In this document: positions 1,454-62,341 of the stretch, in pieces
Layout of the letters: the number at the start of each line of letters is the position of its first letter
Position numbering within the stretch: position 1 is the first letter of the stretch
DNA from: an uncultured Verrucomicrobiae bacterium
GTDB taxonomy: Bacteria > Verrucomicrobiota > Verrucomicrobiia > Chthoniobacterales > JAFAMB01
NCBI GenBank assembly: GCA_963762565.1
Contig: CAVXLD010000001.1
Span: 704,001-768,000, forward strand
DNA length: 64,000 bases
Reading direction: 5' to 3'
Made by a program: the position numbers and the translations under genes
The notes under the pieces: model-generated
What the model was told of the DNA's origin: nothing
The model's input: the letters and a program-made list of their open reading frames with translations, nothing else
Database searches by the model: none

Positions 1454-1581
1454 CGCACGGTTCGGGGGTTCGCGGTTCGTCCTCGTCCTCGATTGGGGCT
1501 CCAGGGCGGTTGGCCGTTTAGAGTTTCGTTCCCATGTCCTATTGGTCCCATAAGTCCCATCCGTGCTACGTCTCCTGGCTA

Positions 1582-1691
1582 CTAGTGTCCTGTCCCATAA
1601 ATGATGTGGCTTTCGCCGTCGGCCAGTTGGCTGTTTTTCAAGGCGCGAGCGACGCGCCCATATCTGGTTCCTACGGGTCGAGCGAGCAACG
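1582..1691. mobile_element. Truncated copy (left ~110 bp) of the MITE at 5725-6020
   Basis: CTAGTGTCCTGTCCCATAAATGATGTGGCTTTCGCC...GGGTCGAGCGAGCAACG aligns with few mismatches to the left part of 5725-6020. Confidence 0.85.
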
Positions 1692-1794
1692 ACGAGGACG
1701 AGAAACGACGCTGCAAACCGCCAACCGCCAACCGTGAACGGTGAACTCTTTCGGGCTTGCTAACCACCGCAGCTTCCTCGAAGAATCTTCACCA

Positions 1795-3021
1795 ATGTCG
1801 ATTGTCGTCCAAAAGTACGGCGGCAGCAGTGTGGCTGATGTCGGTAAGCTTCGTTTGGTGGCTGATCGGATCATGCGAACGAAGAAAGAGGGACACGACG
1901 TTGTGGTTGTCGTTTCCGCAATGGGCGACACGACGGACGACCTGCTCGCCTTAGCCAAACAGATCTCGGCTAACCCCGACCGGCGTGAACTCGATATGTT
2001 GTTGTCGGCGGGCGAAAGGATCTCGATGGCGCTGCTTTCGCTGGCCATACGTGAGTTGGGTGGAGACGCGATTAGTTTCACCGGTAGCCAGTCTGGTATC
2101 ATTACAAACGACCGCCATATCGATGCTCGAATCATCGAAGTACGACCGTTCCGGGTCCAGGACGAGCTAGCCAGGGGAAAAATCGTCGTGGTCGCAGGTT
2201 ATCAGGGTGTCTCGTATCGCAAAGAGATTACAACTCTTGGACGAGGCGGCAGTGATACCACTGCAGTAGCGATGGCAGCCGCGCTCGGAGCAGAGTGGTG
2301 TGAGATCTGCTCGGATGTCGACGGGGTATATACCGCTGACCCACGCGTGGTTCCTGCAGCTGAAAGGATCGGCGTTCTCTCTTACGAGGAAACTCAGGAG
2401 CTTGCTGAGTCCGGCGCTAAAGTTTTGAATGCTCAAGCGGTCGAGTTTGCCAAGGAAAAAGGGATCGCCATTTATGCCCGCGCCACCTCAGGCGCTCTCC
2501 CTGGTAAGGATCCTTCCCTGGATGGCACCGTGGTCCGAAAGCTGGCTCCTAGGTTGCCCGGGTCCGTGATCGGCGTGGCGAGTGAAAAAGAGGTGCTTTT
2601 GATTCAATCACGCAACATTAGCGGACTGTTGCAGGTAATGGATGATTTTGGCTGCCCAGGTAAGCAGCTCCATCTGTCCTCAACGGGCGGGGACCAAGAC
2701 GGTCTCACATTGGTGATCTCAAAAGAAAATCTGCATCAAGGCCCGAAACTGCAGGCACAATTAACCAAGCAGGACCCAGGCTCACACTGGAACGATGCGA
2801 TTGGAGCCGTCAGCATTATCGGAGCCGGCATTAACGCTTCTCACGACAAGGTGCGGCGCGGGTCGCAGGCATTGGAGAAAGCCGGCATTCGATACCACAG
2901 TTTAGCGACATCGTCTTTCCGGGTTACCTGGCTGGTGGACCGGGAAAAGGTCGAAGAGGCGGTCCGACTGCTTCACGGTTTGTTTATTGAGGCGAAAGAG
3001 CCGGTTGTGCCGTTGGAGTAA
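1795..3021 (+). CDS. lysC: Aspartate kinase
   Basis: [52 protein letters not shown]-terminal ACT-like region; start set at ATG 1795. Confidence 0.95.
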
Positions 3022-3042
3022 GGGGCCGTGGCCTTCGTACAC

Positions 3043-3292
3043 GTCCTCGTCCTCGACTTGGTGGGGCGAGGCTCCCGAACTTGTCTAACGGTTGGAACCA
3101 AGCGATCGGTAATGCCACCGTATCGTGCTGTTAGGCCTAAATTCGCGCCGAGCCGTGGTCCATGGTGGGCCACGGCTCGGCGCGCCTCTTGGTCTTGTTC
3201 ATTCAACTCTCGGCGTTCAAAACGTGCACCGCTGGTCGATTGTCACGCTCTTCGGGAGCCTCGCCCTACCAAGTCCAGAACGAGTACGAAGA
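3043..3292. repeat. REPIN-like palindrome: GTAG-type REP pair with CTCGTC arms
   Basis: GGTGGGGCGAGGCTCCCGAA (3060-3079) and TTCGGGAGCCTCGCCCTACC (3251-3270), flanked by CTCGTCCTCGACTTG / CAAGTCCAGAACGAG; internal hairpin GAGCCGTGGTCCA/TGGGCCACGGCTC. Confidence 0.8.
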
Positions 3293-3456
3293 GCAGTGGT
3301 CCAGCCACTTAGTCGAATCGGGCGCGGATTTCTCGCCTACCAGAAAAAAAGAAAAAGCTGGCTCGATCAGAGGGGGAACGGTTCTGGGGGCCAATCGAGC
3401 CAGCAATGAAACGCTATGAAAAATTGATTCCTATTCAACAATTTTTTTAGGGAATT

Positions 3457-4383
3457 TTACGGCGCCGCCAACCAAATCTCTACCACCCGATTTTTGTCAG
3501 GGGTTCCATGGCCGAAAAACTCTGAACCACCCATGCCAACGGCTCGAATCGTGTTTACGATCTTGGCTTGGGTCTCCAAAATCTTCTCGATAGCATCAGC
3601 GCGTTGCTTCGAGATCTCCATGTTTTGTGCTTGGTTCCCTTGCTTGTCTGCGTAGCCCGCGACCACGAACACAACGGTTGGGTCTTCGTAAAGCTTCTGA
3701 TATTCGGGCTTCTTCAAGTACTCTAACAGATGGTCGATCTGAAACTGCTCCGGACGGGCCTTCCCGGATGGGAACGGGATAATCGCGAGCTTGGTAAACC
3801 CGCGAGCTCGTTCAACTTGAGCGTAGAGATAGTCTCGTTCCTTCTGAGAAACGTCTTTCAGCAAGTCGATTCGGGACAACACTTCTTTTCGGACCTCCGC
3901 CTCCTCGGCTGCGTCATATTTCACGGTGGGAAACGCTTGAGCACTAGCGGAAGCTTGAGCCTCAGTATTTGACTGTTCGGCCGCGGACGCAGTGGGAGTT
4001 TCAGACGCCTGAGCCGGGGTCTCACCGGGAGTCGCTGTGGCTTCGGGCGTTGGTGACTGCGTTTCCTCCGGTGTGGTCAGAGGAGTCGGGGACGCGGCGG
4101 GCTCTGGAGTCGGCGTGGATGTCTCTGTCGGAACCGGTGTCGCCGTCGGAGTCGATTCCGGTGTCTGTACCGGAGATGGAGAGGGAGTGGCAATTGGCGT
4201 CGCTTGTTCTTGAGCTACATACGGAGTCGGAGACGCGCCCGTCTTCTGTAGGCCTCTGCCGATCAGTTGTATGTACGCGAAAATTCCGCCGGCTAAGAAG
4301 AAAATAACAGCGGCAAGAGCAAAAAGCGCCGGTGGTGACAACGCGATTTTTGGCTCACTATCCTTAGGGTTTTGGTCCGGCAT
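3457..4383 (-). CDS. OmpA/MotB-like peptidoglycan-binding membrane protein with Pro/Thr-rich linker
   Basis: One N-terminal TM, TP-rich linker, VAGYAD...NMEISKQRA...NRVVEIW; paralogue of 6083-6886. Confidence 0.85.
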   Translation of the reverse strand: MPDQNPKDSEPKIALSPPALFALAAVIFFLAGGIFAYIQLIGRGLQKTGASPTPYVAQEQATPIATPSPSPVQTPESTPTATPVPTETSTPTPEPAASPTPLTTPEETQSPTPEATATPGETPAQASETPTASAAEQSNTEAQASASAQAFPTVKYDAAEEAEVRKEVLSRIDLLKDVSQKERDYLYAQVERARGFTKLAIIPFPSGKARPEQFQIDHLLEYLKKPEYQKLYEDPTVVFVVAGYADKQGNQAQNMEISKQRADAIEKILETQAKIVNTIRAVGMGGSEFFGHGTPDKNRVVEIWLAAP

Positions 4384-4560
4384 AAGCTAACGCATCGAGA
4401 TAAAGGACGGGAACGACCAGCATATCTAAATAGATACGCGATGAGTGAGCAACGTGGAAAATTGACCCACCCCCGACGGAAGGGGTTTTAGGTTATACGT
4501 TTTAGGTTTTAGGTTTTAGGTTCCGAGCCGCACAACGAAAGCGGCAACCCAGCGCAGTCC

Positions 4561-5728
4561 CTAGTGTGTTGAAAGATAAGTCAGTAACATTAGTGTTGTA
4601 ATCAGTGTAGGCAAGCTGTAATAATGGGAGGATGGCGAAGGGACGACCGGTTAAACCAATTAGACTAAGCAAAGAGCAGGAAGAGAAACTGAGGTTAATC
4701 GAGCGGCGGCCTAGTAGTCAGCAGAGTTTGGCGCTGCGAGCCAAAGTGATATTGGAATGTGCTCAAGGCAAAAGCAATCTGGAGGTAGCCAAAGAATTAG
4801 GCGTTTGTCAGCACATGGTGGGGAAATGGAGGCGGCGCTTTATTGAGCAGTCCTTGGAAGGCTTAGTCGATGCGCCCCGCAGCGGAGCGCCACGAGAGAT
4901 CTCCGATGAGAAAGTAGAAGAAGTGGTGACAAAGACATTGGAGACTACGCCCGCTGCTAGAACCCATTGGAGCAGTTGGCTCATGGCTAAGGAAGCCGGC
5001 ATTTCCCAAGATTCGGTTCGACGGATCTGGCAAGCCTTCGGTTTAAAGCCGCACTTAGTAAAGAGCTTCAAACTCAGCACCGATCCGATGTTTGTCGAAA
5101 AGGTACGCGACATCGTGGGCTTATATTTATATCCGCCCCAGAAGGCCATCGTGCTGTGTGTCGATGAAAAGAGTCAAACCCAAGCTCTAGAAAGAACCCA
5201 GCTGATCTTGCCGATGAAGCCGGGCTACCCAGAGCGCCAGAGCCACGACTATTATCGTCAGGGGGTGGTTTCACTCTTTAGCGCTTACGAGGTAGCGACC
5301 GGTCGAGTCATTGGCAAATGCCACAGTCGTCATCGTGAAGAGGAATTCTTGAAATTTATGCAACTCATCGATACCAAATTCCCCGGCTCGGCTCCCATTC
5401 ACCTGGTGCTGGATAATTTGGCCACTCACAAGACGCCCCGAGTGCGCAACTGGTTTGCCCGCCGACCTCGATACGTTTTGCATTTTACCCCTACGGGCAG
5501 CTCCTGGATTAATCAGGTCGAACGCTGGTTTGCCAAAATCACTACTCAAGCCATTCGCCGTGGCAATTTCCGTTCCGTTAAACATCTCATCCAAGCCATC
5601 GACGACTATATCGCCCAGCACAACCAGGACCCAAAACCCTTCCAGTGGACCGCCACACCCGAGAGCATCTTCGCCAATCTAGAAGCCTCCCTAACTTAAT
5701 GTTACTTACTTATCTTTCAGCACACTAG
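4561..5728 (+). mobile_element. IS630-family insertion sequence, complete
   Basis: Ends CTAGTGTGTTGAAAGATAAGTCAGTAACATTA and reverse complement CTAGTGTGCTGAAAGATAAGTAAGTAACATTA (30/32 match including CTAG); CTAG site is typical of IS630. Confidence 0.93.
4632..5699 (+). CDS. IS630-family transposase
   Basis: N-terminal HTH, DAPRSGAPR, DDE motifs VDEKS / LVLDNLATH / NQVERWF; intact 355 aa. Confidence 0.95.
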   Translation: MAKGRPVKPIRLSKEQEEKLRLIERRPSSQQSLALRAKVILECAQGKSNLEVAKELGVCQHMVGKWRRRFIEQSLEGLVDAPRSGAPREISDEKVEEVVTKTLETTPAARTHWSSWLMAKEAGISQDSVRRIWQAFGLKPHLVKSFKLSTDPMFVEKVRDIVGLYLYPPQKAIVLCVDEKSQTQALERTQLILPMKPGYPERQSHDYYRQGVVSLFSAYEVATGRVIGKCHSRHREEEFLKFMQLIDTKFPGSAPIHLVLDNLATHKTPRVRNWFARRPRYVLHFTPTGSSWINQVERWFAKITTQAIRRGNFRSVKHLIQAIDDYIAQHNQDPKPFQWTATPESIFANLEASLT

Positions 5729-6020
5729 TGTCCTGTCCCATAAATAACGTGGCTTTCGCCGGCGGTCAGTTGGCTGTTTTTCAAGGCGCGAGCGAAGCGC
5801 CCCTATCTGGTTCATACGGGTCGAGCGAGCAACGCGGAAAAACAGCCAACTGGCCACGGCCCGGAGGGTTGCGATGAAAATGGGCCGGCGGCTGCGTTGC
5901 TCGTCGGTTACGTATCGATCAAGATATGCGCCCTCTACCGCCAGTCCGGCTCGGACCGCCTTGCCGGCGGCCCATTTTGATCGCAACGAAAGCCACGTTA
6001 TTTATGGGACAGGACACTAG
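5725..6020. mobile_element. Non-autonomous MITE (296 bp) with perfect 34-bp terminal inverted repeats
   Basis: CTAGTGTCCTGTCCCATAAATAACGTGGCTTTCG ... CGAAAGCCACGTTATTTATGGGACAGGACACTAG; two long internal hairpins; partial second copy at 1582. Confidence 0.88.
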
Positions 6021-6082
6021 GTCCAAAGCGCAACTTAAAACGTAAAACCTATAACTTATAACCTAGAACTTATAAGGCCTGC

Positions 6083-6886
6083 TCACGGCTGAACCGCCCA
6101 GACTTCGACGACCCGGTTCTTTTCCTTGTTCGTCTTGTCGAAGAGCTCTTGACCGCCCATCCCGATCGAGTGCATCAGATTGGTTAGCTTCAATCGGGCC
6201 TCAATCATTTTCTGTACGGACTCAGCTCGAGTTCGCGAGATTTCGAGGTTACTGGCTTCGTTGCCCTGAGTATCGGCGTACCCGACGAACATCAGGACAA
6301 CGGTTGGATCACTTAGCAGCTTTTGAACGCCTGCGTCCTGGATACGCTTGATCAGATCATCGATCTGAGCGGCGCCGGGCGCCGTACGGCCACTTTGAAA
6401 CGGGACGAGTGTGACTTTAGTGAAACCACGGGCCCGTTCGATCTGAGCGTAGAGCTGGTCTTTCTCCTTGTCGGAGAGGTTACGCATTAGGTCAACCCGC
6501 GTAAGCACTTCCCTGCGCGTGTCTTCCTCCTCCTTGGCGTCCGAGCTTGCCGCCGGTGAGTTCACCGTAACCGGCGTGCCGCTCGCCCCGGCGACCGCCG
6601 TTTCGTCTTTTATCGCCGTTGCTGTTATTGCTGCCGTCGGGCTCGTTCGTGCCGAAGTCGACGGGGTAGCACTGGCAACGACCGGACTGGCCTCCCCAGC
6701 ATGTCGTTTCGCCATCACGGCTTCATATACAATGAAGCCTGCTATCCCAAACGCGATTAGGGCAAAGAAGGTCGCTAGCCCCACAATGACCCAAACCCCG
6801 GATGGGGTCTTACTTTTCGGTTGAACTAACTTCTGGAATCCGTCGCCGAGGGACTGCTCGGCCGGATCAATGGGCTCTTTGGGCAT
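6083..6886 (-). CDS. OmpA/MotB-like membrane protein (paralogue of 3457-4383)
   Basis: TM, Ala/Thr linker, FVGYAD...NLEISRTRA...NRVVEVW. Confidence 0.85.
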   Translation of the reverse strand: MPKEPIDPAEQSLGDGFQKLVQPKSKTPSGVWVIVGLATFFALIAFGIAGFIVYEAVMAKRHAGEASPVVASATPSTSARTSPTAAITATAIKDETAVAGASGTPVTVNSPAASSDAKEEEDTRREVLTRVDLMRNLSDKEKDQLYAQIERARGFTKVTLVPFQSGRTAPGAAQIDDLIKRIQDAGVQKLLSDPTVVLMFVGYADTQGNEASNLEISRTRAESVQKMIEARLKLTNLMHSIGMGGQELFDKTNKEKNRVVEVWAVQP

Positions 6887-8390: not shown

Positions 8391-8468
8391 AGTGGACGTA
8401 GTGGACTGAGTGGACGTCGTGGAGGAGCGAACCTTTCACTTCTCACCTCTCACTTTTCACTTCTCACT
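8391..8468. repeat. Short tandem repeats (GTGGAC 9-mer and TTCTCAC 7-mer)
   Basis: AGTGGACGTAGTGGACTGAGTGGACGTCGTGGA followed by TTTCACTTCTCACCTCTCACTTTTCACTTCTCAC. Confidence 0.7.
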
Positions 8469-8515: not shown

Positions 8516-9532
8516 ATGGCGTACTCTTTGGATGATGACGTAGCGGACAGTTCAGTATCGCTGATACGCTGGTTATTGCCGGCCGCGGCGCTTTCTCTGG
8601 TACTGCACGGCGCGCTTTTCTTCGGCTTCAGCAGAAAGATTCTACACAGTTTCGAAACCCCAAACACTCCTCGGCTGGTGCCAAGGGCTTTCAGTGTTAA
8701 TCGGGTGCAAATCGACGAGAAATTGTTGGAGGATCAGGGACAGGAAAGTAAGACTCTTACAAATAACGGCGCGGCCGGCGGCAGCACGAAAGGAGTCACT
8801 CAGTTTGATGGGTCTTTCGAGGAGGACATTAAAGAGCTCCGGGCGACTCCTCAGGTCAGCACACCGCAAGCTCCGGATTTCAAAGAAAAGCCAACCGTCG
8901 ATACCCAAGCGGCCAGGAATGCCGCCACCAAAGCTGAAGTGGAGAGCGCGTTGGTCATGGACAAGGAGCTGAGTGACGCCAGGCAAAAGCTGATCAATGA
9001 AAAGCCGGGTGTCACTGGTCCCAGGCCTAAGTTAGCAACCGGTAACAGGAAAAACCCGGGAAGAGCCGCTAGCGAGGAATCGGGTGACGGCAACATCTCA
9101 GGAGATTCGGGTATCCCATCAGGTTTTAGCAACCTCGATGAACTTCTGTCAGGTTCCGGCCGAGTTGGTAGCGGCACTGCACCGATCTTGATGCCGACCG
9201 ACCTGCTTTTCGAATTTGATTCTGCCGATCTGCGGGAAGGAGCGACGGCCAGCTTGCAGAAGCTGGGCCGGATCATCCAAAGAAATCCGCAAGCGGTCTT
9301 TAAAGTAGAAGGCTACACTGATTCCTTCGGCACTGAAGATTACAATATGGACCTTAGCCAAAGACGCGCTGAAACCGTGAAGGATTGGCTAGTGGAGAAC
9401 ATGAATATCGATCCAGCCCGTATCCAAGCCCAGGGATTCGGGAAGACCCACTTGCTGGTACCCGCTGATCGTTCGGTTGAGCAGCAGCAGTTAAATCGGC
9501 GGGTTGAGATCGTAATCCGCGCGAAAGGATAG
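8516..9532 (+). CDS. OmpA-family protein with N-terminal anchor
   Basis: SLVLH TM motif; LLFEFDSADL, VEGYTDSFG, LSQRRAETV, NRRVEI. Confidence 0.88.
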   Translation: MAYSLDDDVADSSVSLIRWLLPAAALSLVLHGALFFGFSRKILHSFETPNTPRLVPRAFSVNRVQIDEKLLEDQGQESKTLTNNGAAGGSTKGVTQFDGSFEEDIKELRATPQVSTPQAPDFKEKPTVDTQAARNAATKAEVESALVMDKELSDARQKLINEKPGVTGPRPKLATGNRKNPGRAASEESGDGNISGDSGIPSGFSNLDELLSGSGRVGSGTAPILMPTDLLFEFDSADLREGATASLQKLGRIIQRNPQAVFKVEGYTDSFGTEDYNMDLSQRRAETVKDWLVENMNIDPARIQAQGFGKTHLLVPADRSVEQQQLNRRVEIVIRAKG

Positions 9533-9537
9533 CCTGG

Positions 9538-9939
9538 TTGATTTTCGGCGTCCCGACCCCATATTCTCTGGTGAATCCGGGAGTAGAGGTTAGGTATAAA
9601 ATAGGTAACGAGCGCTTGGTTAAGGTCACCCAAAGGGCGGCAGCCAAGTTGGGCCAGCTTCTGGAACGTCAGGGTCGGCCTACTGGAGCGCTCAGGGTAG
9701 CGGTAATCGGAGGGGGCTGTTCCGGGTTACAGTACAAAATGGATCTCGTCGATGGCCCGATGAATCGCGACATTTTAGTAGAATCAAATCAAGTTCGGGT
9801 TGTGGTTGATCCAAAGAGCGCTTTGTTCGTCAGCGGTTCGCTCGTCGATTTCAGTGATGATCTGCAGAAGGGCGGGTTCAAAGTGACCAACCCTAACGCC
9901 GTCGCTCATTGCTCTTGTGGCGAGAGTTTCTCGGCATGA
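9538..9939 (+). CDS. iscA: Fe-S cluster A-type carrier (IscA/ErpA/HesB)
   Basis: GGGCSGLQY and CSCGESF motifs; start uncertain. Confidence 0.9.
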   Translation: MIFGVPTPYSLVNPGVEVRYKIGNERLVKVTQRAAAKLGQLLERQGRPTGALRVAVIGGGCSGLQYKMDLVDGPMNRDILVESNQVRVVVDPKSALFVSGSLVDFSDDLQKGGFKVTNPNAVAHCSCGESFSA

Positions 9940-10502: not shown

Positions 10503-10761
10503 AGCGCGTGCTTTAATCAGTGATGCAGGCTATGGCATCAGAATGTCCGGCTGACGCCCGAACATTCTGCTGCGAATTCTTGGTGCAAGACTCCCAACCC
10601 ATGTGCATCCAATGTCGATGAATATTTACTTAACTCTGAAGATGAAAATCCCAGCGCGAGCGATTTTAGACACCAGCAGAATAGCTCGGCTAAGCCGAGC
10701 TGTTCTGCCATAGCCTGCGTATCTCACAAATCAGTGACGGATTTGTGAGATACGCAGGCTT
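10483..10761. repeat. Array of three TA-delimited palindromic mini-elements
   Basis: TAGCCTGC...GCAGGCTA (10483-10532), TGGCA...TGCCA (10533-10710), TAGCCTGCGTATCTCACAAATC...GATTTGTGAGATACGCAGGCT (10711-10760). Confidence 0.7.
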
Positions 10762-12576
10762 ATGAGTCAAATCGTCGGAATCGACCTAGGCACAACGAAT
10801 TCCCTAATCGGGATCATGGACTCAGGATTTCCTATCCTGCTGGCCGATTCCGATGGGTTCCGTTTGACGCCATCGATCGTGCATTTCCCGGTTTCTGGCG
10901 AACCGCTGATAGGGCGCCCGGCCGGACGGATGAGGGCCATCTCACCTGAGCGAACGGTCTTTTCAGTTAAGCGATTAATGGGGGTTCGTCCTGGTGAGAC
11001 CGGCAAAGACAGTTTTCCATTTCGAGTCGCCGATGCTCAAGGGAAGACCAGCATCGTCATCGGAGACAGAACCGTCACTCCTGAGGAGGTTTCCAGCTTA
11101 ATTCTCCGCAAGCTCAAGGCTGACGCCGAGAGGGTTCTGGGCTACTTGATTGACCGGGCGGTGATCACGGTCCCCGCTTATTTCAACGATTTGCAGCGCC
11201 AGGCCACAAAGAGAGCCGGCGAAGCAGCGGGATTCACAGTCGAGCGCATCATCAATGAACCGACCGCTGCCGCTTTGGCCTACGGACTCGACCGGCTAAA
11301 AGACCGATCCAAGATTGCAGTGTACGATCTTGGCGGCGGTACTTTTGACATTTCGATCCTCGAGCTCAATGAAGGCGTTTTTCGCGTTCTCTCGACTAAC
11401 GGTAACACGCGTTTAGGCGGAGATGATATCGACCGAGACTTGGTTCGTCTCCTCGAAGAACGCATCACTGCCCGCTATCCGGAAATCCTGCGGGACCTGA
11501 AAGAACCATTATTTTCTGCACGCCTCCGCGAGTTAGCACACGATGCCAAGCTAAGATTGTCAGAGGAAAACGCTGTTCAGATCGAGATCCCATTTCTTTC
11601 GGGGAATCGCCGCTTCAGTTATTTGCTTAGCCGCCAGGAGCTGGAAGCAATTACTCGAGCGATCATTCGGCGGACCCGTTCCCATTGTTTGCGGTCGCTG
11701 GACGATGCCAAGGTTGTGCCTCGCGATTTGGATGAGGTTATCCTCGTCGGAGGAGTTACCCGGATGCCGATTGTGCGCCAGTTCGTCGCTGAGATTTTTC
11801 AACGGCTACCGAACACATCTCAAAATCCGGATGAAGCGGTTGCCATCGGCGCCACGATCCAGGCCGGCATCATCTCTGGCGAGATCCAAAGTGTCGTACT
11901 GCTCGATGTGACTCCCTTGTCGCTAGGAGTCGAAACCTTTGGGGGTCTCATGAATGTGATCATCCCGCGAAACACCACGATTCCTTGCAAGGCAGGCGAA
12001 ATGTTCACTAACGCGGTGGCTTACCAGAAATCGATGCGAATCAAAGTCCTTCAAGGAGAGAGGGAACTAGCCAAGGATAACTGGGAGTTAGGAAGTTTTG
12101 AGATCGAATTCGTGCCCGTACCCAAAGGGGTTGCTCGGGTTGGCATCCAGTTTGAGATCGACGCGAACGGAATTCTTCATGTGTTAGCGCGCGACGTCAG
12201 CACCGGCCAACAGACAGTGCTGGATTTAGCTAGCGCGGTTGACGTCTCTAATGAAGCCGTGGAACAGATGATCGCCGAATCCGTCGATCATGCATTTGAG
12301 GATATGTCCGAGCGCGTCTGGACCGAGACCTCAATTAAAAGCAAGGAGCTGCTACCCGCAGTTAAAAGCGCTCTGACATTGGTCGGTGAGCAACTGACTC
12401 CGAAAGACAGGGAAGAAATCGAGGCGTTGGTCAACGCGGTCAGTGAGGCCCTGGAAAGCCAAGACATCCAACGCTTGAGGTCCGCCAATGCAGCGCTAGA
12501 CCGAGGCACACAGCATCTCGCGACACTGCTGATCGACCGTGCCATGTCGGAGGCGGAGAAGCGCCGAGCGGGGTGA
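10762..12576 (+). CDS. hscA: Hsp70-family chaperone, HscA-like by context
   Basis: [35 protein letters not shown]; follows iscA-hscB. Confidence 0.8.
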
Positions 12577-12579
12577 GAC

Positions 12580-12846
12580 GCGAAACGGCGCACCGGCGAA
12601 AGGGCGAAACGGCGAACCGAGGCGCGAATCGTAGGAGGGCGCGCGTCCTCGCGCGCCGCGACGACGTTCCAGACCTAGAGACGTATTTGATTCCTCGTTC
12701 CGCAAAGACGCTCGACTCTGCGAACAACGGATCGCGGGGACGCGATCCCTCCCCTCGCCCTTTCGCCCTTTCGCCTTTTCGCCCTTTCGCCTTTTCGCCC
12801 TTTCGCCCTTTCGCCCTTTCGCCGGTGCGCCCTTTCGCCGTTTCGC
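12580..12846. repeat. Nested palindrome: GGCGAAA(G/C) 8-mer arms around a GGAG-type REP pair
   Basis: Left arm GCGAAACGGCG...GGCGAAAGGGCGAAACGGCGAA; right arm (TTCGCCCT)n; inner GGAGGGCGCGCGTCCTCGCG (12634) / CGCGGGGACGCGATCCCTCC (ends 12752). Confidence 0.85.
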
Positions 12847-15036: not shown

Positions 15037-15402
<366 letters not shown>

Positions 15403-19470: not shown

Positions 19471-19546
19471 GGTGGTCGTAGCTCAATGGTAGAGCCCTGG
19501 ATTGTGGTTCCAGCTGTTGCGGGTTCGAGTCCCGTCGACCACCCCA
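19471..19546 (+). tRNA. tRNA-His(GTG)
   Basis: G-1 plus GTGGTCG/CGACCAC acceptor stem, C discriminator, encoded CCA, anticodon arm CTGGA-TTGTGGT-TCCAG, GGTTCGAGTCC T-arm. Confidence 0.97.
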
Positions 19547-19575: not shown

Positions 19576-19665
19576 AATAGCAAATAGAAAATCGAAAATA
19601 GCAAATAGGGGGTACGCGTCACCCACCGTTGTTTTGCAGGAATTTGCTATCTGCTATTTGCTATT
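19576..19665. repeat. Palindrome with GCAAATA 7-mer arms
   Basis: AATAGCAAATAGAAAATCGAAAATAGCAAATAG / TTTGCTATCTGCTATTTGCTATT; single arm also near 59796-59818. Confidence 0.75.
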
Positions 19666-24083: not shown

Positions 24084-24389
24084 AGGAGCTAGGAGCTAGA
24101 ATCTAGGAGCTAGAAGGGGCGCCGCGGCAATGCATCGCTCTCGTCCTTGTCCTCGAAGGTACGTTTTGGTTCCAGCGCCCGGTTTGCTCTTTCGTGCCGG
24201 AGGGGAGCCGCTTTGTAGGTTTGCAAGCTCTGCCGGTTGCTAGCAGGCGGCTCCCTCCGGCGCGATAGAGCAAATCGGTACGCTGGAACCGATACCATTT
24301 TCGAGGACGAGGACGACGACGAGGACGATTACGATCCATGCCGCGACGGCCCTCCTAGCTCCTAGATTCTAGCTCCTAGCTCCTAGCTC
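24084..24389. repeat. ~305-bp nested palindrome with AGGAGCT 7-mer arms
   Basis: AGGAGCTAGGAGCTAGAATCTAGGAGCTAG / CTAGCTCCTAGATTCTAGCTCCTAGCTCCT; CTCGTC/GACGAG layer; central GGAGGGGAGCCGCTTTG...AGGCGGCTCCCTCC. Confidence 0.88.
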
Positions 24390-25946: not shown

Positions 25947-26030
25947 ACGGATAGGACATATGGGACCTATAGGACACATACGACCTGGGTCCGTCCCATA
26001 AGTCCCATTGGTCATATAGGTCCTATCCGT
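25947..26030. repeat. Palindrome with GGACCTATA-type 9-mer arms
   Basis: ACGGATAGGACATATGGGACCTATAGGAC / GTCCCATAAGTCCCATTGGTCATATAGGTCCTATCCGT. Confidence 0.8.
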
Positions 26031-27609: not shown

Positions 27610-27690
27610 GGATAGGACCTATGGGACTGATAGGACTTATATGACGGAACATCGAACATATAGGTCCTATCTGTCCTATAAGTCCTATCC
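27610..27690. repeat. Palindrome with GGACCTATG-type 9-mer arms
   Basis: GGATAGGACCTATGGGACTGATAGGACTTAT / ATAGGTCCTATCTGTCCTATAAGTCCTATCC; same family as 25947 and 1530-1562. Confidence 0.8.
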
Positions 27691-29335: not shown

Positions 29336-29609
29336 CGGAGGGGAGCCGCTTTGGTGCGTTGCCAAACGACCCCTCGAAATTCGTTCCACGTTCGATGCGT
29401 TCTCGAAACGAGGCCAACAAGCGGCTCCCGCGAATAACCCAAGGTGACGAATCTACCTGCGCGCTTCAATTTGCTATCGGTCCGATCGGCAGAACTGCAA
29501 GCCGCTGGGTAATTCCCGGGAGCCGCCTGGTGCATCGCTTCTCGGACACATGCGCCCAGGTACGAATAACGCGAGGTCATATGTCGTCCGCCAAAGCGGC
29601 TCCCCTCCG
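29336..29609. repeat. GGAGGGGAGCCGCTTTG-family four-unit palindromic element
   Basis: CGGAGGGGAGCCGCTTTGG / CCAAAGCGGCTCCCCTCCG with inner AAGCGGCTCCCG / CGGGAGCCGCCT. Confidence 0.85.
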
Positions 29610-40932: not shown

Positions 40933-41108
40933 AGGGGCTATTCTCCGAAACTGTCGGCATCAATAAAGGAGCTAGGAGCTAGAATCTAGCAGCCAGGAGG
41001 GGCGTTTCGTGGGCCCCAATCGTCGTTCTCGTTCTTCGCAAGGCTACGCTTGATCGTGGCACACGGTCATCTACGGTGTTGCCGGGCTATCTTTGCTTTG
41101 AAGAACGT

Positions 41109-44974: not shown

Positions 44975-45023
44975 GGCACGCGTTGGGCAGCGCCGAGAGT
45001 CTAATAGACGGGAGGCGACATCA

Positions 45024-45102
45024 GCGGACGTAGTGGACTAAGTGGTTGTTTGCAGCTTGTCCACTAGGTCCACTGTGTCCACTCCGGTCCACTCCGTCCA
45101 CT
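45024..45102. repeat. Palindrome with GTGGAC/GTCCAC 9-mer arms
   Basis: GCGGACGTAGTGGACTAAGTGG / GTCCACTAGGTCCACTGTGTCCACTCCGGTCCACTCCGTCCACT. Confidence 0.75.
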
Positions 45103-45127
45103 AACCGTGTCCCCCTTCGCCCCGGTA

Positions 45128-46636
45128 TCAGTCCGGAATCAGATGCAGCTTCTGCAGCTCTTGTTTGCTCGGCAGCTGCGAACTATCCCAACCACCACCC
45201 AGAGCTTGGACTAAAGCGACGCTCGCGATCAGGCGTTGTTCCTGGACCTGAAGCGCAGTCTCCTGATCCGTCAGGAGTGTTACCTGAGCGGTGATCACTG
45301 TCGTGTAGGCAATAGTCCCGGCTTGATACTCATTCAATGAGATCTGGACCGCCTGCTGCGCTTTCTGCACAGCATCTCGTTCTACGCCGATCTGCTGTCC
45401 CAATACCCGCAAAGCGACCAATTCATCTTCGACATTTTGGAAGGCGGCAAGAACGGTCTCTCGATAGTTAGCCACACTTTGGTCATACGCTGCCCGAGCC
45501 GCAGCGACCGCGGCGGAACGCTGCCCACCGGTGAGCACGCTTTGACTCGCACTGGCCATGAGTGTCCAAACCTCGCTCGAGGCAGAGAACAAAGCCGCGC
45601 CTGGGTTACCCGCATATCCAAATACAGCCGACAGGTCAAAGGTAGGAAAATAGGCAGCGACCTGTACTCCAATCAGCGCATTCTCTGACTTCATTTGACG
45701 TTCGGCCTCGGCAATATCCGGTCTTCGCTCAAGCAAAATCGAAGGAACACGTGTAGGCACAATCGGAACCCGCTCCGCCAATGAACCCGCCGGAATCGAC
45801 ACCTCGGCTGGCGGTTTTCCGATCAGCAGAGCAATAGCATGTTCGTCTTGGCCGCGTTGGACTCCGACATTAACCAATGCCGCTTGAGCGGCCAGAAGCT
45901 GGGCCTGAGCATTAATCACATCGGACTTCGCGGCTGTGCCCACCGCATACTGGTTTTCGGTTATCTTCAGTGAACGCTCGTAGCCGGCAACAGTATCGGC
46001 CAGCAATTGCTTAAGAGCGTCAGCGTAGCGCAACTCAAAGTAGTCGGTAGCAAGTGTGGCTTGAGCAGACAGCTTAGCTGCTGCCAATTCCGCTGCGCTT
46101 ACTTGGGCGCTCGCCACGCTGCTTTCAACGGTCCGGCGAATCTTACCCCATACGTCTGGTTCCCACGTCGCCGTGCCTTCTAAAGAATAAGAGGTAACGG
46201 CCCCGCTATTGAATCCGTTCGAGCCTCCGGATTTCTGCCGTTCAACTTGAGGTGACACGCTCACGGAAGGGAAAAAACTGGACTGCTGTTCATGCACCGT
46301 GGCCTGCGCTTCCTGATACGCGGCTTCCGCTGCCTTAACATTCTGGTTTGAGATATTAACCTGGCTTTCGAGCGCTTCGAGCGTTGGGTCCCGGTAAATC
46401 GACCACCAGGCGCCCCGGTTCATTGTGTCATTAGGCGTGGCTACTTTCCAGCCCTGGTACTCCTTATATGTGCTTGGGACGGGGGCTGAAAGGCGATGAT
46501 AATTTGGGCCGACCGAGCATGATAACATTGCAATGGAGAACGCGGCGAGGAACACCTGACGAAACGGCGAAAGGGCGAAAGGGCGAAACGGCGAAACAGC
46601 CCGTTGTGGGTAGGGATTGCGTAGATGATCCATCAA
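45128..46636 (-). CDS. RND outer-membrane factor lipoprotein (NodT/OprM family)
   Basis: Lipobox MLSC-SVGPNY, WEPDVWGKIRR, LLERRPDIAEAE, LVQALGGGW; start uncertain. Confidence 0.92.
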   Translation of the reverse strand: MMDHLRNPYPQRAVSPFRPFALSPFRQVFLAAFSIAMLSCSVGPNYHRLSAPVPSTYKEYQGWKVATPNDTMNRGAWWSIYRDPTLEALESQVNISNQNVKAAEAAYQEAQATVHEQQSSFFPSVSVSPQVERQKSGGSNGFNSGAVTSYSLEGTATWEPDVWGKIRRTVESSVASAQVSAAELAAAKLSAQATLATDYFELRYADALKQLLADTVAGYERSLKITENQYAVGTAAKSDVINAQAQLLAAQAALVNVGVQRGQDEHAIALLIGKPPAEVSIPAGSLAERVPIVPTRVPSILLERRPDIAEAERQMKSENALIGVQVAAYFPTFDLSAVFGYAGNPGAALFSASSEVWTLMASASQSVLTGGQRSAAVAAARAAYDQSVANYRETVLAAFQNVEDELVALRVLGQQIGVERDAVQKAQQAVQISLNEYQAGTIAYTTVITAQVTLLTDQETALQVQEQRLIASVALVQALGGGWDSSQLPSKQELQKLHLIPD

Positions 46637-46772
46637 TGTAGTCGTTTAAATTCGGAGCTCAAAATGCTCCTTCGGAGCCGATTCTGGGTTTTCAAGCCTC
46701 GTGACGACCCGAGCTGTCGCCCAAAATAATCGCCGTTTCGCCCATTCGCCCTGTCGCCGTTTCGTCGTCTCG
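46558..46772. repeat. GGCGAAA(G/C) 8-mer inverted arms across the mdtC/OMF junction
   Basis: GACGAAACGGCGAAAGGGCGAAAGGGCGAAACGGCGAAAC / TCGCCGTTTCGCCCATTCGCCCTGTCGCCGTTTCGTC. Confidence 0.8.
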
Positions 46773-50087: not shown

Positions 50088-50390
50088 CCGCAGATTAAAA
50101 GGCAGAGTTTGTAATCCGCAGATTGACGAAACCCGGAGTTAATATCCGCAGATTTCGCAGATTACGCAGATTACGGTTTGAGGTTGTGCAGTGCGGTCGG
50201 GCAAAGAAACCTGCATTGGCGGGACGAGGGTTCTGATATTCGAGAGGCGTACCGGAGCCCCGGTAGTTCCTGCAAATGTCAAAACGCGCATCCCTCCAAT
50301 ACACCTTCCTTTGTCCTATCGTGGTCCACGACCCCAAACCGAAATCTGCGTAATCTGCGGATATTTCCATCTTCGGTGTAATCTGCGGTT
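50086..50390. repeat. Palindrome with CGCAGATT(A/T) 9-mer arms between mdtB and mdtC
   Basis: ATATCCGCAGATTTCGCAGATTACGCAGATTACGGTTTG / CAAACCGAAATCTGCGTAATCTGCGGATAT. Confidence 0.82.
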
Positions 50391-53525: not shown

Positions 53526-53790
53526 ACAACCGCGAATACACACGAATGGACACGAATAAAAGACTCTAACCGCGGATGAACGCAGATTGACGCAGATGAG
53601 ACATGCCGAACAGGTTCTTCATTCGAAAAACGTGGCAACACCAGGACATCTTCTCTCAACTATCGAAAGACGCTGCGGATCCTCTTTCTCAACCACCGCT
53701 AGTGTGCGGGTATTCTATCTGTGTCAATCTGCGTTCATTGTGGTTGCCGGCCTTTGTTCGCATGCATTCGCGTCAATTCGTGGTTGTTTC
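53526..53790. repeat. Two nested palindromes with 10-mer arms between mdtA and mdtB
   Basis: Outer ACAACCGCGAATACACACGAATGGACACGAAT / TTCGCATGCATTCGCGTCAATTCGTGGTTGT; inner AACCGCGGATGAACGCAGATTGACGCAGAT / ATCTGTGTCAATCTGCGTTCATTGTGGTT. Confidence 0.82.
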
Positions 53791-55812: not shown

Positions 55813-56040
55813 AGAAGTTCAGGAGTTCAAGGAGTCGCAGGAGTTCAGGAACCTGCTCGCTAACAACCTACCAGCAACCTTGGAGACAGTTGGTTTGCGG
55901 GAACCTTTTATTCTCGTAATTTTCTGTTTCGCGCAGCCTGAACTCCTGAACTCCTGAACTCCTGAACTCCTGAACTCCTGAACTCCTGAACTCCTGAACT
56001 CCTGAACTCCTGAACTCCTTGAACTCCTTGAACTCCTCCA
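55813..56040. repeat. Palindrome with AGTTCAGG/CCTGAACT 8-mer arms
   Basis: Ten perfect CCTGAACT units (55937-56016) plus two CCTTGAACT; inverse arm AGTTCAGGAGTTCAAGGAGTCGCAGGAGTTCAGG near 55816-55849. Confidence 0.9.
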
Positions 56041-56777
56041 TCAGCTCCCTGCGGCAACGATGGACTATCTGGCAATCCATCGAAACAGTCGGGATAAAAA
56101 CCGGCGAGATTTTGCTGTCCTTCGACGACGGCCCGAATCCGATTGACAACACAACTGCCCGATTACTCGACGTTTTAGGACAAGAGACGGTTCGCGCTGC
56201 TTTTTGCGTTTGTGGCAAATCCGTTCGCGAGGCGCCGGAACTTGTACGTTGGATGATGAGCGACGGGCATTTAATTGTTAACCACAGCTATTGGCACCAG
56301 CCGTTAGCGGCGCTTTCGGAAAAGGCCCTGAAGAAAGAAATCAACGATTGCGATGCCACCATAGCCGGCGCCGGGCATAACCCTTCGTTCAAAACTCAAT
56401 TTTTCCGGCCGGCTTGCGGCTGGCGCACCCCTATAATCGATCGGGTACTACCGCGGCTGGAAAAGCAGTTATTCCCAATCACCGACTTTGGGTTCGACAC
56501 AAGCATAACGCGCCATAATTACCCCGAATGGGTTGATCGAACCGTGCACGCAGCCAAGCGCGACCGAGGTGGTCTCTTCGTCTTACACGATCGCCGTCTG
56601 CGCTTTTGGGGCGAGCGTTTCTACGATCCTACAGACAAAGATAGCAGTGCCTATCGTGGGTGGGTACCGGATGCGGCGGCGCTGCTGATTAGGCGGTGTA
56701 GAGCAGAGGGATTTAGCTTCGCGGATCCGCACGGCTTTGCGGGTTCTTTGGTAGGGCGAGGCTCCCGAATGGCGTGA
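56019..56777 (+). CDS. Polysaccharide deacetylase (NodB/CE4)
   Basis: LSFDDGP, NHSYWH, FFRP, FVLHD; start uncertain, lies at the repeat edge. Confidence 0.85.
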   Translation: MNSLNSSISSLRQRWTIWQSIETVGIKTGEILLSFDDGPNPIDNTTARLLDVLGQETVRAAFCVCGKSVREAPELVRWMMSDGHLIVNHSYWHQPLAALSEKALKKEINDCDATIAGAGHNPSFKTQFFRPACGWRTPIIDRVLPRLEKQLFPITDFGFDTSITRHNYPEWVDRTVHAAKRDRGGLFVLHDRRLRFWGERFYDPTDKDSSAYRGWVPDAAALLIRRCRAEGFSFADPHGFAGSLVGRGSRMA

Positions 56778-57385
56778 ATGCTTTCGCAAAGGGACCTGAG
56801 CTTTTATCCCTTCTATCATTCGCAACGCCGGTACGCTCGCCGAGCCGGACCCTGCGTGTGAAATCGTAGTCGTCCTCGTTCTCGTCCTCGATAGTGGCGT
56901 GGCACGTCGATGCGACACGCGATTGCCCAGCGCCTGGAGGGGAGCCGCTTAGGCGCGAACCTTTCCACCCTCGCGAATTTCGTCTCAACACTAGTCCGGC
57001 CGAAACGTGCAAAAACAGGCGGCTCCCGGGAATGACCCAGCGGTTCGCAGCTTTACGGCCGGGTGTAAACGATTCGGAGCCGCAGATAAAATCATTGCAT
57101 TGGGCTAATCCCGGGAGCCGCCTGTTGCGACATTTTTTAGTCGGATTGAGCGCTGAGACAACTATCGCGGGTCCGTCTGCTACGCGCCAAAGCGGCTCCC
57201 CTCCAGGCGCTGGGCAATCGCGTGTCGCATCGACGCGCCACGCCACATCGAGGACGAGGGGCCACATAATGATTTCACACGCTGGGTCCGGCTCGGCGCA
57301 TGCATCGGTGTTGCAACCCGATAGAACCCAATAAATCGACAGTCTTCGCGAACCCGTTCAGGCCTTTCGGGAGCCTCGCCCCACC
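56750..57385. repeat. ~635-bp multi-layer nested palindrome
   Basis: Outer GGTAGGGCGAGGCTCCCGAA / TTCGGGAGCCTCGCCCCACC; ~110-bp inverted arms at 56838-56950 and 57189-57298; inner AGGCGGCTCCCGGG / CCCGGGAGCCGCCT. Confidence 0.9.
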
Positions 57386-57430
57386 AAGCTGCTAGGCCGA
57401 AAACGCTACGCGCCGATACGCCGACACGCT

Positions 57431-58777: not shown

Positions 58778-58840
58778 GGACTAGGCTTTCCCAACAAGGG
58801 CGCAAAGATCACAGAGGTTTTGGAAAAAGGAAGGAAATTG

Positions 58841-59546: not shown

Positions 59547-59558
59547 ATCGCTATTCTG

Positions 59559-59801
59559 GACGCCCTCGAAGGTCCGCTGATAGCTTTGGATTTGACAGAG
59601 ATTCATCTCTGGGTTGGTGACCTGAACTGGGCGATTAACGCGCTTGAGACGCTCAGCGAGGTCCCCGGTGCATTAACCTACGGCGACTTGGTGCTGCCAG
59701 AATGGAATTCGTTGCGAAGTGATCCACGCTTTCAGAAGGTCTTGTCCGAGCTGAAACCGATCCCCATCGTGAATAGGCCGGAAGATCACAATAGCGAATA
59801 G
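59559..59801 (+). pseudogene. C-terminal remnant of a TPR-containing kinase/cyclase-type protein
   Basis: DALEGP...WVGD...AI..L...TYGDL...WNSLRSDPRFQKVL resembles the recurrent 'WDPLRxDPRF' C-terminus; no upstream part. Confidence 0.6.
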
Positions 59802-59879
59802 CAGATCGCAAATAGCAAGTCTATCCAGCGGCGACTTAGCGAGCGAGACCGCTGGATTAGAGAAACGCCATTCAGTCTT

Positions 59880-61583
59880 TCATCCCCCGGCGTCGAGACA
59901 AGACCGGATCTTTTGCAGTAGCTTTTCAGGCGCAAATGGTTTCTCTATGAAATTGGAAGCCTTTCGCAACAGCGCGTCGTTGCCCAAAACATCGTCGGGA
60001 TAGCCGCTACAAAAGATCACTCTTAAACCAGGTTTTTCGGACCGCATTTGATCGAACAAAGCACGTCCATTGACACCGCCAGGCATAACTAAATCAGTGA
60101 CGATCAGCTGAATCGATTCATGATGTTCCCGCCAAATTTCCAGAGCGGCTGCGCCCGACACAGCGGCATGGACGTGATAACCGTAATGAGCCAAAATACT
60201 CCCTATCGATCGGCGCACGGCTTCTTCGTCTTCAACTAACAAGATCGTTTCGGTGCCACGGAGAATAGACAGGTTTTGGACACGCCGAGCCGAAGAAGCG
60301 AGCTTATTTCTGGTCAATGTAGGCAGATACAAATGAAATGTCGTGCCTGCACCCAGGCGGCTATCCACTTCAACCCAACCTCGATGTTGTTCAACGATAT
60401 GCAGAACGCTAGCCAGGCCTAATCCGGTGCCTTTGCCAGGCTCTTTAGTAGTAAAAAATGGCTCAAAAATACGCGGTAAATTTTCAGCGGCGATCCCAGC
60501 TCCTGTATCGGATACGCTGAGACGCGCGTATTGACCGGGCCGGCCATTGCCTGAAAGCAAAACCTCCGGCTTATCAACCTGAACTCTGGAGGTCTCGATC
60601 GCGAGCCGGCCGCCATTGAGCATGGCGTCTCGGGCATTGACCGCGAGGTTGATCAGAGCCTGTTCTAACATACTGGCATCAGCGTCGACGGGAACGACCT
60701 CGTGCGGGTACCGGGTTTTCAAGACGATGTGTTCGCCGATGAGTCGTCTCAGCATTTGCACGACTGATGCGACAACTTCGTTGAGATCGAGCGGTTCGGT
60801 CTGTGTCAATCGGCGCCGACCGAAGGCCAGCAAGTGTTGAGTCAGGCTAGTAGCTCGGTCAGCAGCATCAGAAATTTCGTTGGTTATCGTTTTCCGCTCG
60901 GATTCCGAGAGTTTCTTGGTCTGTAGGAGCGATACGTTCCCTTTGATTGCAGTCAGAACATTGTTGAAGTCATGAGCAATGCCACCGGTCAATTGCCCGA
61001 AAGCTTCCATCTTTTGCGCTTGGCGGAGCCGTTCTTCGAGTTGCGCTTTTTCAATGGCAATGCCCGCAAGGTGGGTTGTACCTTTCACTAACCGCAGTTC
61101 AGCCCGGCTCGGGGAACGCACTTCCCGATAATACATAGCAAATGTGCCTAGCACCTTGCCCCGGCGAGAAAAGATCGGCGTGGACCAGCATGCCCTGAAC
61201 CCATAAGGCTCAACTAAGTACCGATAGTCAGCCCACAGTGGGTCGGTCTGGATATCGGCAACAATCACCTGCTTCTTCCGGTAAGCAGCGGTACCACAGG
61301 ACCCAGCTTTCGGGCCAATAGGGCTGCCATCGATCGCTCTCATATACTCCGTGGGCAAGCTCGGCCCAGCCAAATGGCGCAATCGCTTACCTTCCGGATC
61401 CAGAAGTAAAATAGAGGCCAGCAAGCCTTTGGACCGGAATTCGTTAAGCCGCATCAGCCGGTCCAGCACGTCTGAAAGCGGTGCGCCCAGGGCCATCATC
61501 TCCAGAATAGCATTTTCCCCGGTACGCAAACCTTTTGCGTCCTGGCGGACACGGGAACTAACTGGTCGTGACGTGCTTTTCAC
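59880..61583 (-). CDS. Hybrid histidine kinase (GAF-HisKA-HATPase-REC), cytoplasmic
   Basis: GSCGTAAY GAF, QAQKMEAFGQLTGGIAHDFNN, NARDAM, FFTTKEPGKGTGLGL, ILLVEDE...TDLVMPG. Confidence 0.94.
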   Translation of the reverse strand: MKSTSRPVSSRVRQDAKGLRTGENAILEMMALGAPLSDVLDRLMRLNEFRSKGLLASILLLDPEGKRLRHLAGPSLPTEYMRAIDGSPIGPKAGSCGTAAYRKKQVIVADIQTDPLWADYRYLVEPYGFRACWSTPIFSRRGKVLGTFAMYYREVRSPSRAELRLVKGTTHLAGIAIEKAQLEERLRQAQKMEAFGQLTGGIAHDFNNVLTAIKGNVSLLQTKKLSESERKTITNEISDAADRATSLTQHLLAFGRRRLTQTEPLDLNEVVASVVQMLRRLIGEHIVLKTRYPHEVVPVDADASMLEQALINLAVNARDAMLNGGRLAIETSRVQVDKPEVLLSGNGRPGQYARLSVSDTGAGIAAENLPRIFEPFFTTKEPGKGTGLGLASVLHIVEQHRGWVEVDSRLGAGTTFHLYLPTLTRNKLASSARRVQNLSILRGTETILLVEDEEAVRRSIGSILAHYGYHVHAAVSGAAALEIWREHHESIQLIVTDLVMPGGVNGRALFDQMRSEKPGLRVIFCSGYPDDVLGNDALLRKASNFIEKPFAPEKLLQKIRSCLDAGG

Positions 61584-61909
61584 TGGCAGAATGCGACCCC
61601 AATAACTAACCCTATGAGAAACTTGGCTCTTTAGCCAGCTGCTTTCCGAACGGGCTCACACCGCTTCTTCTAGCCTAAGGCCTGTTTATCCGGTATTCAG
61701 CAGGCGGCGTTAATGAATTTAAGCTCTTTTCTTCAGCGATTACCGGCCGCACGCATTCTCCGCAAGACCAAGATGGCTCAGTAGCAGGTGGGTGCAAAGG
61801 ATCGGTTTAGACAATTGATTCGGCCCTACGGCAGGGTGCTCGACTTCCGGTTAAATACAGAAGCGGCACCGTCTTTGCGTCATTCCAACTAAAAGGAGAG
61901 GTAGAAACG

Positions 61910-62095
61910 TTGCAGTTTTGGATTCATGAGTATCAACTGGTTGAGACTAAGAAGGGTGAAACCTTTATCGTCGTAAACGGCAAAGATATCGAGACGTCCC
62001 GGGAATGGTTAACCAAGTTAATTGGCGATCAGCTTGGCCGGCAGAAGGTCCTAATCCCCGAACAATTTAGCTGGCTGAGTCGATTGCTTCGATGA
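61910..62095 (+). CDS. Small hypothetical protein (61 aa)
   Basis: AGGAGAGG RBS before TTG; plausible composition. Confidence 0.45.
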   Translation: MQFWIHEYQLVETKKGETFIVVNGKDIETSREWLTKLIGDQLGRQKVLIPEQFSWLSRLLR

Positions 62096-62341
62096 GGAGC
62101 TAGGAGCTAGAATCCAGGAGTCAGGAGGATTCTTGGGACTGCCGCACGCTGAGACAAAAGTATGCCAGGGCCATGAGACGTGATTGGTGATTTGTGATTA
62201 GTGATTGGTGCGAGACACCGATCCTGGCGGAGGCCCCGCCAATCACCAATCACCTTTCACCAATCACCAATCACCTTTCACGCTCCCCGGACTAACCACG
62301 CCTCCACACATGCCACACCCCACGCCCTCCTGGCTCCTAGC
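62095..62341. repeat. Nested palindrome: AGGAGCT outer arms, GTGATTG 7-mer inner arms
   Basis: AGGAGCTAGGAGCTAGAATCCAGGAG / CTCCTGGCTCCTAGC; GTGATTGGTGATTTGTGATTAGTGATTGG / CCAATCACCAATCACC...CCAATCACCAATCACC. Confidence 0.85.

Follow-up and report, generated by a model that had tools for sequence, protein, structure and literature searches.

Inverted tandem-repeat arms in a verrucomicrobial genome match the ends of small cassettes carrying four-helix-bundle or GxxExxY genes

What are the layered palindromes that fill many gaps between genes in this bacterial genome, and what spreads them? The window, a 64,000-bp stretch from an uncultured Verrucomicrobiae bacterium (assembly GCA_963762565.1, contig CAVXLD010000001.1, positions 704,001 to 768,000), carries largely ordinary housekeeping, signalling and transport genes around these gaps; matching DNA comes mostly from soil metagenomes, which suggests a soil-living host. 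A sequence-only reading had described palindromes with inverted tandem-repeat arms in about 20 gaps and proposed one family of non-autonomous elements that insert into each other's centres under a trans-acting enzyme, for example an HUH-type or REP-associated tyrosine (RAYT) transposase (REP, repetitive extragenic palindrome). We analysed the source genome (G000; 6.1 Mb, 54% GC, completeness 93.7%, in which the window is C1:704001-768000) together with 40 related genomes; below, C numbers with positions refer to G000, and other G and L numbers are our handles for related genomes and loci. The arms are linked to small genes of other kinds, each protein clade has one repeat word, arms and spacer have been copied together to new gaps, genes have been lost with their arms kept, and interiors have been flipped and replaced.

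We define a doublet as an inverted pair of short-tandem-repeat arms and scored arrays with Tandem Repeats Finder (TRF), an inverted-repeat search and a stem listing. Together with reading of the sequence, these place true inverted arm pairs in 15 window gaps; of the other sites, 8391 is not a palindrome, and the arms at 1530, 40968 and 59790 are unpaired. Among 3,142 arrays genome-wide (period 6–10, TRF score of at least 32), pairs no more than 300 bp apart comprise 462 inverted and 13 direct cases, against 24.6 ± 4.0 inverted pairs expected from 30 label permutations, and homologous arms occupy the same gaps in independent assemblies; inverted pairing thus exceeds chance, as first supposed, and the arms are not assembly artefacts. 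A strict de novo parse of G000 yields 545 doublets in 28 unit families, occupying at least 1.7% of the genome, and the count is a floor because the parse catches just four of the window's doublets. Polarity is fixed within each family (545 doublets one way, 15 the opposite), median arm length is 27, 31, 30, 27 and 27 bp for periods 6, 7, 8, 9 and 10 (a median of 4.4 units in heptamer arms), and variant units are position-specific within arms and common to dispersed and gene-flanking arms. The arms therefore behave as fixed-length ends and not as free microsatellites.

The genes that these arms enclose lie outside the window. G000 has 8 profile matches to PF05635, 14 to PF13366 and 12 to Y1_Tnp, and inspection of their flanks shows that four-helix and GxxExxY genes stand between repeat arms, as none of the 12 Y1_Tnp matches does. 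In G000 and the 40 related genomes, with counts taken from part of the matches and only from genes with enough flank, inverted flank repeats scoring at least 30 border 46 of 50 four-helix genes and 53 of 56 GxxExxY genes, as compared with 5 of 299 control open reading frame (ORF) flanks; a search around these two gene types had been suggested from the sequence, and nearly all of them have such flanks. A stricter, tandem-only scan finds repeat flanks at 42 of 53 and 26 of 58, respectively. Arm periods are mostly 6–8 at four-helix genes and 8–10 at GxxExxY genes. A further gene type, four-helix-plus-suffix (TIGR04258), adjoins the 9-mer words of the window elements at 25947 and 45022 in several of 22 loci. 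Overall, a matching gene exists somewhere in the family for 10 of the 11 units originally named, and for the hexamer; for the 4484-type word we found only a tentative match, locus L352, and no clear cognate. PF05635/TIGR02436 genes inside terminal arms are a property of full cassettes and not of the gene-less window copies, which are non-autonomous, as had been proposed, with their full versions located elsewhere. Across the 41 genomes the two gene families co-occur (Spearman 0.81; 0.66 per Mb), but kinship confounds this correlation, and we do not use it as proof.

We considered and rejected two other accounts of what lies between the arms. Nine intact cassettes aside, spacers of at least 40 bp in the 545 doublets gave no match to either protein profile at E 0.05, and the spacers are therefore not recognisable gene remnants. 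Of 165 ORFs between arm pairs, most are host genes standing between neighbouring elements or spurious frames, which argues against host genes as cargo. We also found no DDE transposase gene closely enclosed by a repeat-arm pair, the IS630 at 4561 being bounded by ends of its own. Among the cassettes themselves, one four-helix example (C7:440889-441807) is unusual in arm size, with 22 and 27 copies of its 8-mer instead of the usual four. Ongoing decay of partner genes is suggested by three GxxExxY genes with splits or truncations and by one Y1 transposase gene that carries an in-frame stop (C15:24328-24677, C1:653061-653407, C10:371505-371618 and C3:55497-55838).

Arm words follow protein clades. 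Both protein trees (104 and 117 columns) show clades with a single unit family each, in which kin share labels. For a comparison that depends less on host kinship, we took the best 80 genome matches of one four-helix protein (59–73% identity), which span Cyanobacteria, Bacteroidota, Bacillota, Acidobacteriota, Planctomycetota, Nitrospirota and others, excluded two training relatives that were nearly identical as well as two loci at edges, and compared the arms of the remaining 76 loci with six clade word profiles. Both arms best match the profile of their own clade at 52 of 76 loci, whereas the distal control does so at 2 of 75 and the opposite strand at 3. Counting unit mismatches (53 of 78 within two) had failed to separate the families, and the profile test was used instead. 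Intergenic gaps turn over even between congeners (80–85% gene identity), 101 of 115 orthologous gaps between G000 and the congener G003 being unalignable; retention of the word therefore suggests a constraint tied to the protein.

The elements of the window are as follows; no strand applies unless one is given.

1458–1742: nested doublet with 7-mer outer arms and hexamer arms at 1477–1491 and 1690–1704; inside are an unpaired 9-mer arm (1531–1561) and, from 1582, a truncated MITE (miniature transposable element with inverted repeats). Relatives carry this interior in either orientation.
3042–3288: hexamer-arm remnant enclosing a two-tier REP-type element (inner stem 3144–3184); different relatives have different elements in this gap.
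4485–6069: 7-mer arm pair (4485–4522 and 6032–6069) separated by an IS630 and a MITE; relatives have only 96–186 bp here, with the spacer in both orientations.
4561–5728, plus strand: IS630 in that spacer, transposase ORF 4632–5699, with an identical copy at C5:13193-14360.
5725–6020: MITE of 296 bp with 34-bp terminal repeats and many copies in the genome.
8391–8468: chimeric site with a 9-mer left arm and a 7-mer right arm of another family; most relatives have a different 7-mer doublet.
12580–12846: 8-mer arm pair (starts 12580 and 12755) around a REP-type pair; three congeners retain the outer arms with a different inner element.
15037–15401: hexamer arms (15037 and 15387) around a two-tier REP-type element (tiers 15130–15364 and 15177–15294), whose arms also border a RAYT-like gene.
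19576–19665: 7-mer doublet (arms 19576 and 19642) just 3′ of tRNA-His (19472–19546); its unit is the arm unit of the four-helix gene at C1:1345410.
24084–24389: 7-mer outer arms (24084 and 24339), then hexamer arms, then an inner stem, predicted to fold as a single long hairpin (z −20); the cognate four-helix clade was found in relatives and not in G000.
25947–26030: 9-mer doublet (arms 25947 and 25993); its unit borders four-helix-plus-suffix genes in relatives.
27610–27690: 9-mer doublet of the same family (arms 27610 and 27657); G003 has a 10-mer doublet in the orthologous gap.
29336–29609: two-tier REP-type element without repeat arms, missing in G003.
40967–40999, plus strand: unpaired left arm of the 24084-type 7-mer.
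45022–45103: 9-mer doublet (arms 45022 and 45058); the unit also lies upstream of a four-helix-plus-suffix gene, C5:395495.
46558–46766: 8-mer doublet of the 12580 family (arms 46558 and 46730).
50147–50359: 9-mer doublet (arms 50147 and 50327) whose unit forms the arms of the GxxExxY genes C1:643983 and C11:64902.
53541–53782: two nested 10-mer arm pairs (53541 and 53766); the units border GxxExxY genes at C1:1445043 and L101.
55816–56037: 8-mer doublet (arms 55816 and 55937) with an expanded right arm; its unit borders four-helix genes in congeners (L109, L110, L129).
56748–57387: five-layer nest, from outside a REP pair, a second REP pair, hexamer arms (56870 and 57247), a RAYT-linked pair and an inner pair.
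59790–59818, plus strand: unpaired left arm of the 19576-type 7-mer.
62095–62340: 24084-type outer arm with a short right remnant (62326–62340) around a 7-mer doublet at 62180–62281 (arms 62180 and 62239), whose unit borders the four-helix gene C11:15998.

An Rfam search of the window returned only a tRNA, and the elements are located between protein genes, none in a 23S rRNA gene. The IS630 and the 296-bp MITE are adjacent both at 4561–6020 and at C5:12900-14360, with a common four-base junction, as if they had moved together; within 4561–6020 they are seen in G000 only among the relatives compared and, on that sequence comparison, are a late insertion. The same MITE family also occurs at C3:44185-44920 between a four-helix gene and its right arm, where it shortens the arm match. 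Two further observations concern neighbouring gaps. The palindromic element at 10503–10761 has a clean empty site, the gap being 11–12 bp in G001, G003 and L158 and 218–259 bp in others. The noncoding segment 14850–14975, 5′ of a response regulator, is near-invariant in four congeners including the distant G004; Rfam gives no match to it at the gathering score, and it may be a structured RNA or a small gene.

Orthologous gaps, whose comparison for empty and filled states had been proposed at the outset, hold another word, another inner element or nothing in congeners. In G001, a different 7-mer has been added on both sides, outside the older arms of the gap at 1453. The gap at 9515–9560, empty in G000, has an 8-mer doublet in five relatives, its spacer in two orientations, and a small unrelated palindrome in two. 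Among 50 congener cassettes, 27 have syntenic flanks; 20 of these, but not the other 7, correspond to a cassette in G000. Three G000 sites at which a congener has the gene retain matching arms and have lost the gene, and the C11:15998 site is occupied in G003 by a cassette of another clade with another word. Copying extends to spacers: 76 of 371 doublets have a whole-spacer paralogue at 70–97% identity, so that the first description of spacers as unrelated holds in part only.

Interiors also flip. Masked spacers align in reverse between relatives in the gaps 1453–1760 (four sequences versus three) and 4464–6083. Over all fetched loci, 159 of 183 gap groups are unalignable, and inversion is seen in 5 of the 24 alignable groups, each at a site with repeat arms in at least some members; two of these five, first classed as 'plain' and 'other-IR', were recognised as arm-bearing only by eye. 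Relative to host flanks, the gene itself is flipped in 4 of 14 GxxExxY comparisons (three sites) and in 0 of 6 four-helix comparisons. A pairwise inversion test between G000 and G003 was uninformative given the unalignable gaps noted above, and its two 'inverted' calls were repeat artefacts.

Nesting agrees only in part with the first description. Layers do nest, in a minority of cases only (a complete inner element in 76 of 545 doublets), and their order is non-random, as anticipated, with repeat arms around REP-type stems 95 times and the reverse 9 times. The five-layer nest at 56748–57387 runs opposite to the order originally given, its REP-like pairs lying outside the hexamer arms. Repeat-in-repeat nests number only 12, the nested share differs strongly by family (from 16 of 31 down to 0 of 36), fixed two-tier REP-type elements (119/0, 46/0 and 34/0) account for the most frequent nests, and arm-plus-REP composites recur at unlinked sites with up to 94% identity. 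Because whole composites are copied, nesting order is largely inherited, and a single family inserting into its own centres is too simple a description. Genome-wide, the commonest non-tandem stem family (R0; 248 stems) lies outside the window, and we found no partner gene enclosed by it.

The RAYT-like gene at C1:579877 is flanked by both tiers of the REP-type pair found at 15130, 29336 and 56894, with a weak Y1_Tnp match (E 7.7e-4, below the cut-off). A RAYT enzyme therefore fits that inner layer only, which is probably a true REPIN. The repeat arms are direct tandem units and not short palindromes with a tetranucleotide foot.

The two enclosed protein types are unrelated. GxxExxY proteins have invariant E31, D71 and K83 and conserved Q and Y residues; their model (predicted local distance difference test score 94) has as top fold matches nearly all PD-(D/E)XK proteins, including Cas4, lambda-exonuclease and resolvase folds, and the predicted fold is thus PD-(D/E)XK nuclease-like. 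A sequence search of the Protein Data Bank (PDB) gave a best E of about 0.9. Four-helix proteins match structures 2gsc and 2rld, each with five chains, and match the Avd model with E 1e-8 to 1e-10; with scores of 34.7 and 40.6 bits where the cut-off is 80, they are homologous to Avd without being members of the Avd family. That one protein subunit contacts each heptamer unit is speculation.

How might such proteins account for the arms? The reading that we hold most likely, with moderate confidence, is that the arms are ends recognised by proteins and that interiors are inverted, swapped and copied through exchange between paired arms. The arms would be the oriented ~30-bp ends of small selfish cassettes, the full cassette holding one four-helix-bundle, four-helix-plus-suffix or GxxExxY gene, and the window elements would be gene-less progeny, related to full cassettes as REPINs are to RAYT loci. 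Each protein would bind its own word. Strand exchange at paired arms would produce inversion within an element and swapping or copying of interiors between elements, with GxxExxY supplying a nick or cut and a non-catalytic four-helix ring binding or pairing the arms, the nuclease then coming from the host or in trans. Nesting would begin when a REPIN, MITE or IS630 lands in a spacer, after which the whole composite could be copied.

Several observations weigh against this reading. Protein-driven binding, cutting and movement are what we infer, and the four-helix protein has no known catalytic site. The GxxExxY fold matches are middling (best Z 8.1, root-mean-square deviation 2.7, 96 aligned; Foldseek E about 0.01). 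Because arms and gene are physically linked, agreement of clade and unit among kin is expected from descent alone. Cassette genes mostly stay put, 20 of the 27 syntenic congener cassettes being at the same G000 site, and for several abundant arm families G000, at 93.7% completeness, yielded no cognate gene. The similarity of a left arm to the right arm of its own doublet exceeds that to other copies only modestly (mean rank 0.49–0.76). Inversion counts are small, and host recombination could flip 30-bp inverted repeats. Empty sites are too diverged for target duplication to be judged, and no element boundary could be fixed.

The strongest alternative, which we nonetheless consider unlikely, makes the genes passengers: host recombination, template switching and slippage at any 30-bp inverted repeat would be what spreads, inverts and converts the arms, with the word kept only by linkage or by a need at the RNA level such as an RNase III stem. 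In length the arms match the stem of the Coxiella intervening sequence, which has 28 bp and is cut by RNase III (PMC4990558). Slippage evidently expands some arms, up to the 27 copies noted above, many families have no resident gene, and in the gap at 12576 a REP-bounded interior may flip too. This account has difficulty with the word itself, which stays with one clade across phyla although host gaps turn over completely. RNase III recognises a duplex rather than a specific word, and plain hairpin selection does not predict fixed polarity.

Less probable still is a route through RNA, in which a hairpin cut from a transcript would be bound by a pentamer of the Avd-like four-helix protein and then copied into DNA at a new site by a reverse transcriptase (RT) acting in trans. 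The Avd matches, although below cut-off, and the five-chain relatives point this way, as do the predicted single hairpin at 24084 and three RT loci in G000 (C11:224833, C12:184581 and C7:606825-607464), one of them intact with 459 residues; Avd itself is a pentamer that acts with an RT on RNA (PMC6182149). The route leaves out GxxExxY cassettes of the same design, no RT lies inside the arms of any cassette seen, and doublets are equally common, by crude gene calls, in divergent (87 of 655) and co-directional gaps (247 of 2,518). The latter count, with no excess in co-directional gaps, also led us to reject a terminator or mRNA-end role as main cause. We regard as improbable the original proposal that a RAYT/HUH transposase moves all layers, since the 12 Y1_Tnp matches in G000, one of them flanked by the window's inner REP-type pair, and the long non-REP inverted repeats that can flank RAYT genes (PMC3733652) are set against repeat arms that enclose nearly all four-helix and GxxExxY genes and no Y1_Tnp match.

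The system is real and not an artefact, and it is probably undescribed in print: in the literature searched, which comprised open main text, we found no description of the gene–arm system and no mention of TIGR02436. The name GxxExxY occurs in three papers, with a single mention in each of the two listed, PMC4679880 and PMC4060949 contributed nothing further, and the supplements of PMC3733652 list more repeat-flanked loci that may bear on novelty. Intergenic heptamer arrays are known from Xanthomonas and Nostoc, with 70–75 convergent inverted pairs per Xanthomonas genome (PMC4692102), and such pairs resemble ours. That study, whose main text does not contain the term 'helix bundle', states that repeats of heptamers have received no detailed attention; it interprets them as quadruplex motifs and finds them unconnected with mobile elements. 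MITEs, among them tandem MITE-like arrays of insertion sequence ends (PMC10907252), share with our elements short noncoding length, inverted ends and copying as a whole, and differ in that the partner genes here are not those of DDE transposases. The flipping of interiors recalls a further class of element. Invertons flip their interiors between inverted repeats, as happens here; unlike them, our elements have no linked invertase, and number hundreds of sites, and the flips observed are between strains or species.

If the proteins do drive the rearrangements, they would be factors of 120–130 residues that rearrange DNA in a sequence-specific way. Because each protein clade now has a predicted word, a concrete test is possible, with many natural protein–word pairs to draw on. 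It is possible, and we advance it only tentatively, that the cassettes form a distinct class of mobile DNA in many bacterial phyla, in which an Avd-like ring and a Cas4-like nuclease, both tiny and unrelated to each other, read short repeat words by a clade-specific code and drive recombination at ~30-bp arms, so that interiors are copied, flipped and swapped. Such a class would account for S23p rRNA intervening sequences and for much of the unexplained bacterial heptamer excess. The gene–arm association itself links TIGR02436 and TIGR04256, which are widespread and of unassigned function, with the intergenic heptamer excess (PMC4692102) and the origin of the S23p intervening sequence (PMC4990558).

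The closest known systems are two. In the S23p intervening sequence, a four-helix S23p gene lies in a 28-bp terminal stem with tandem heptamers, and the paper describing it leaves its origin and mobility open (PMC4990558); its heptamer is, up to rotation, a common G000 unit (60 arrays). The cassettes described here differ from it in lying between protein genes and in having many words, three gene types and hundreds of gene-less copies that flip and nest. The REPIN/RAYT and TIRtron/TIRYT systems (PMC3116915, PMC3733652, PMC6006769) likewise combine a rare, vertically kept gene that has its own flanking repeat with numerous inverted doublets that lack the gene, and in them each type of protein has one type of repeat. 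As in REPINs, the inverted doublet formed by the repeat arms is over-represented and is the unit that is copied. Here, the arms are tandem 6–10-mers, not small palindromes, and the genes do not encode HUH tyrosine transposases. The system thus works like REPIN/RAYT, stands outside that group by enzyme and arm structure, and generalises the S23p intervening sequence.

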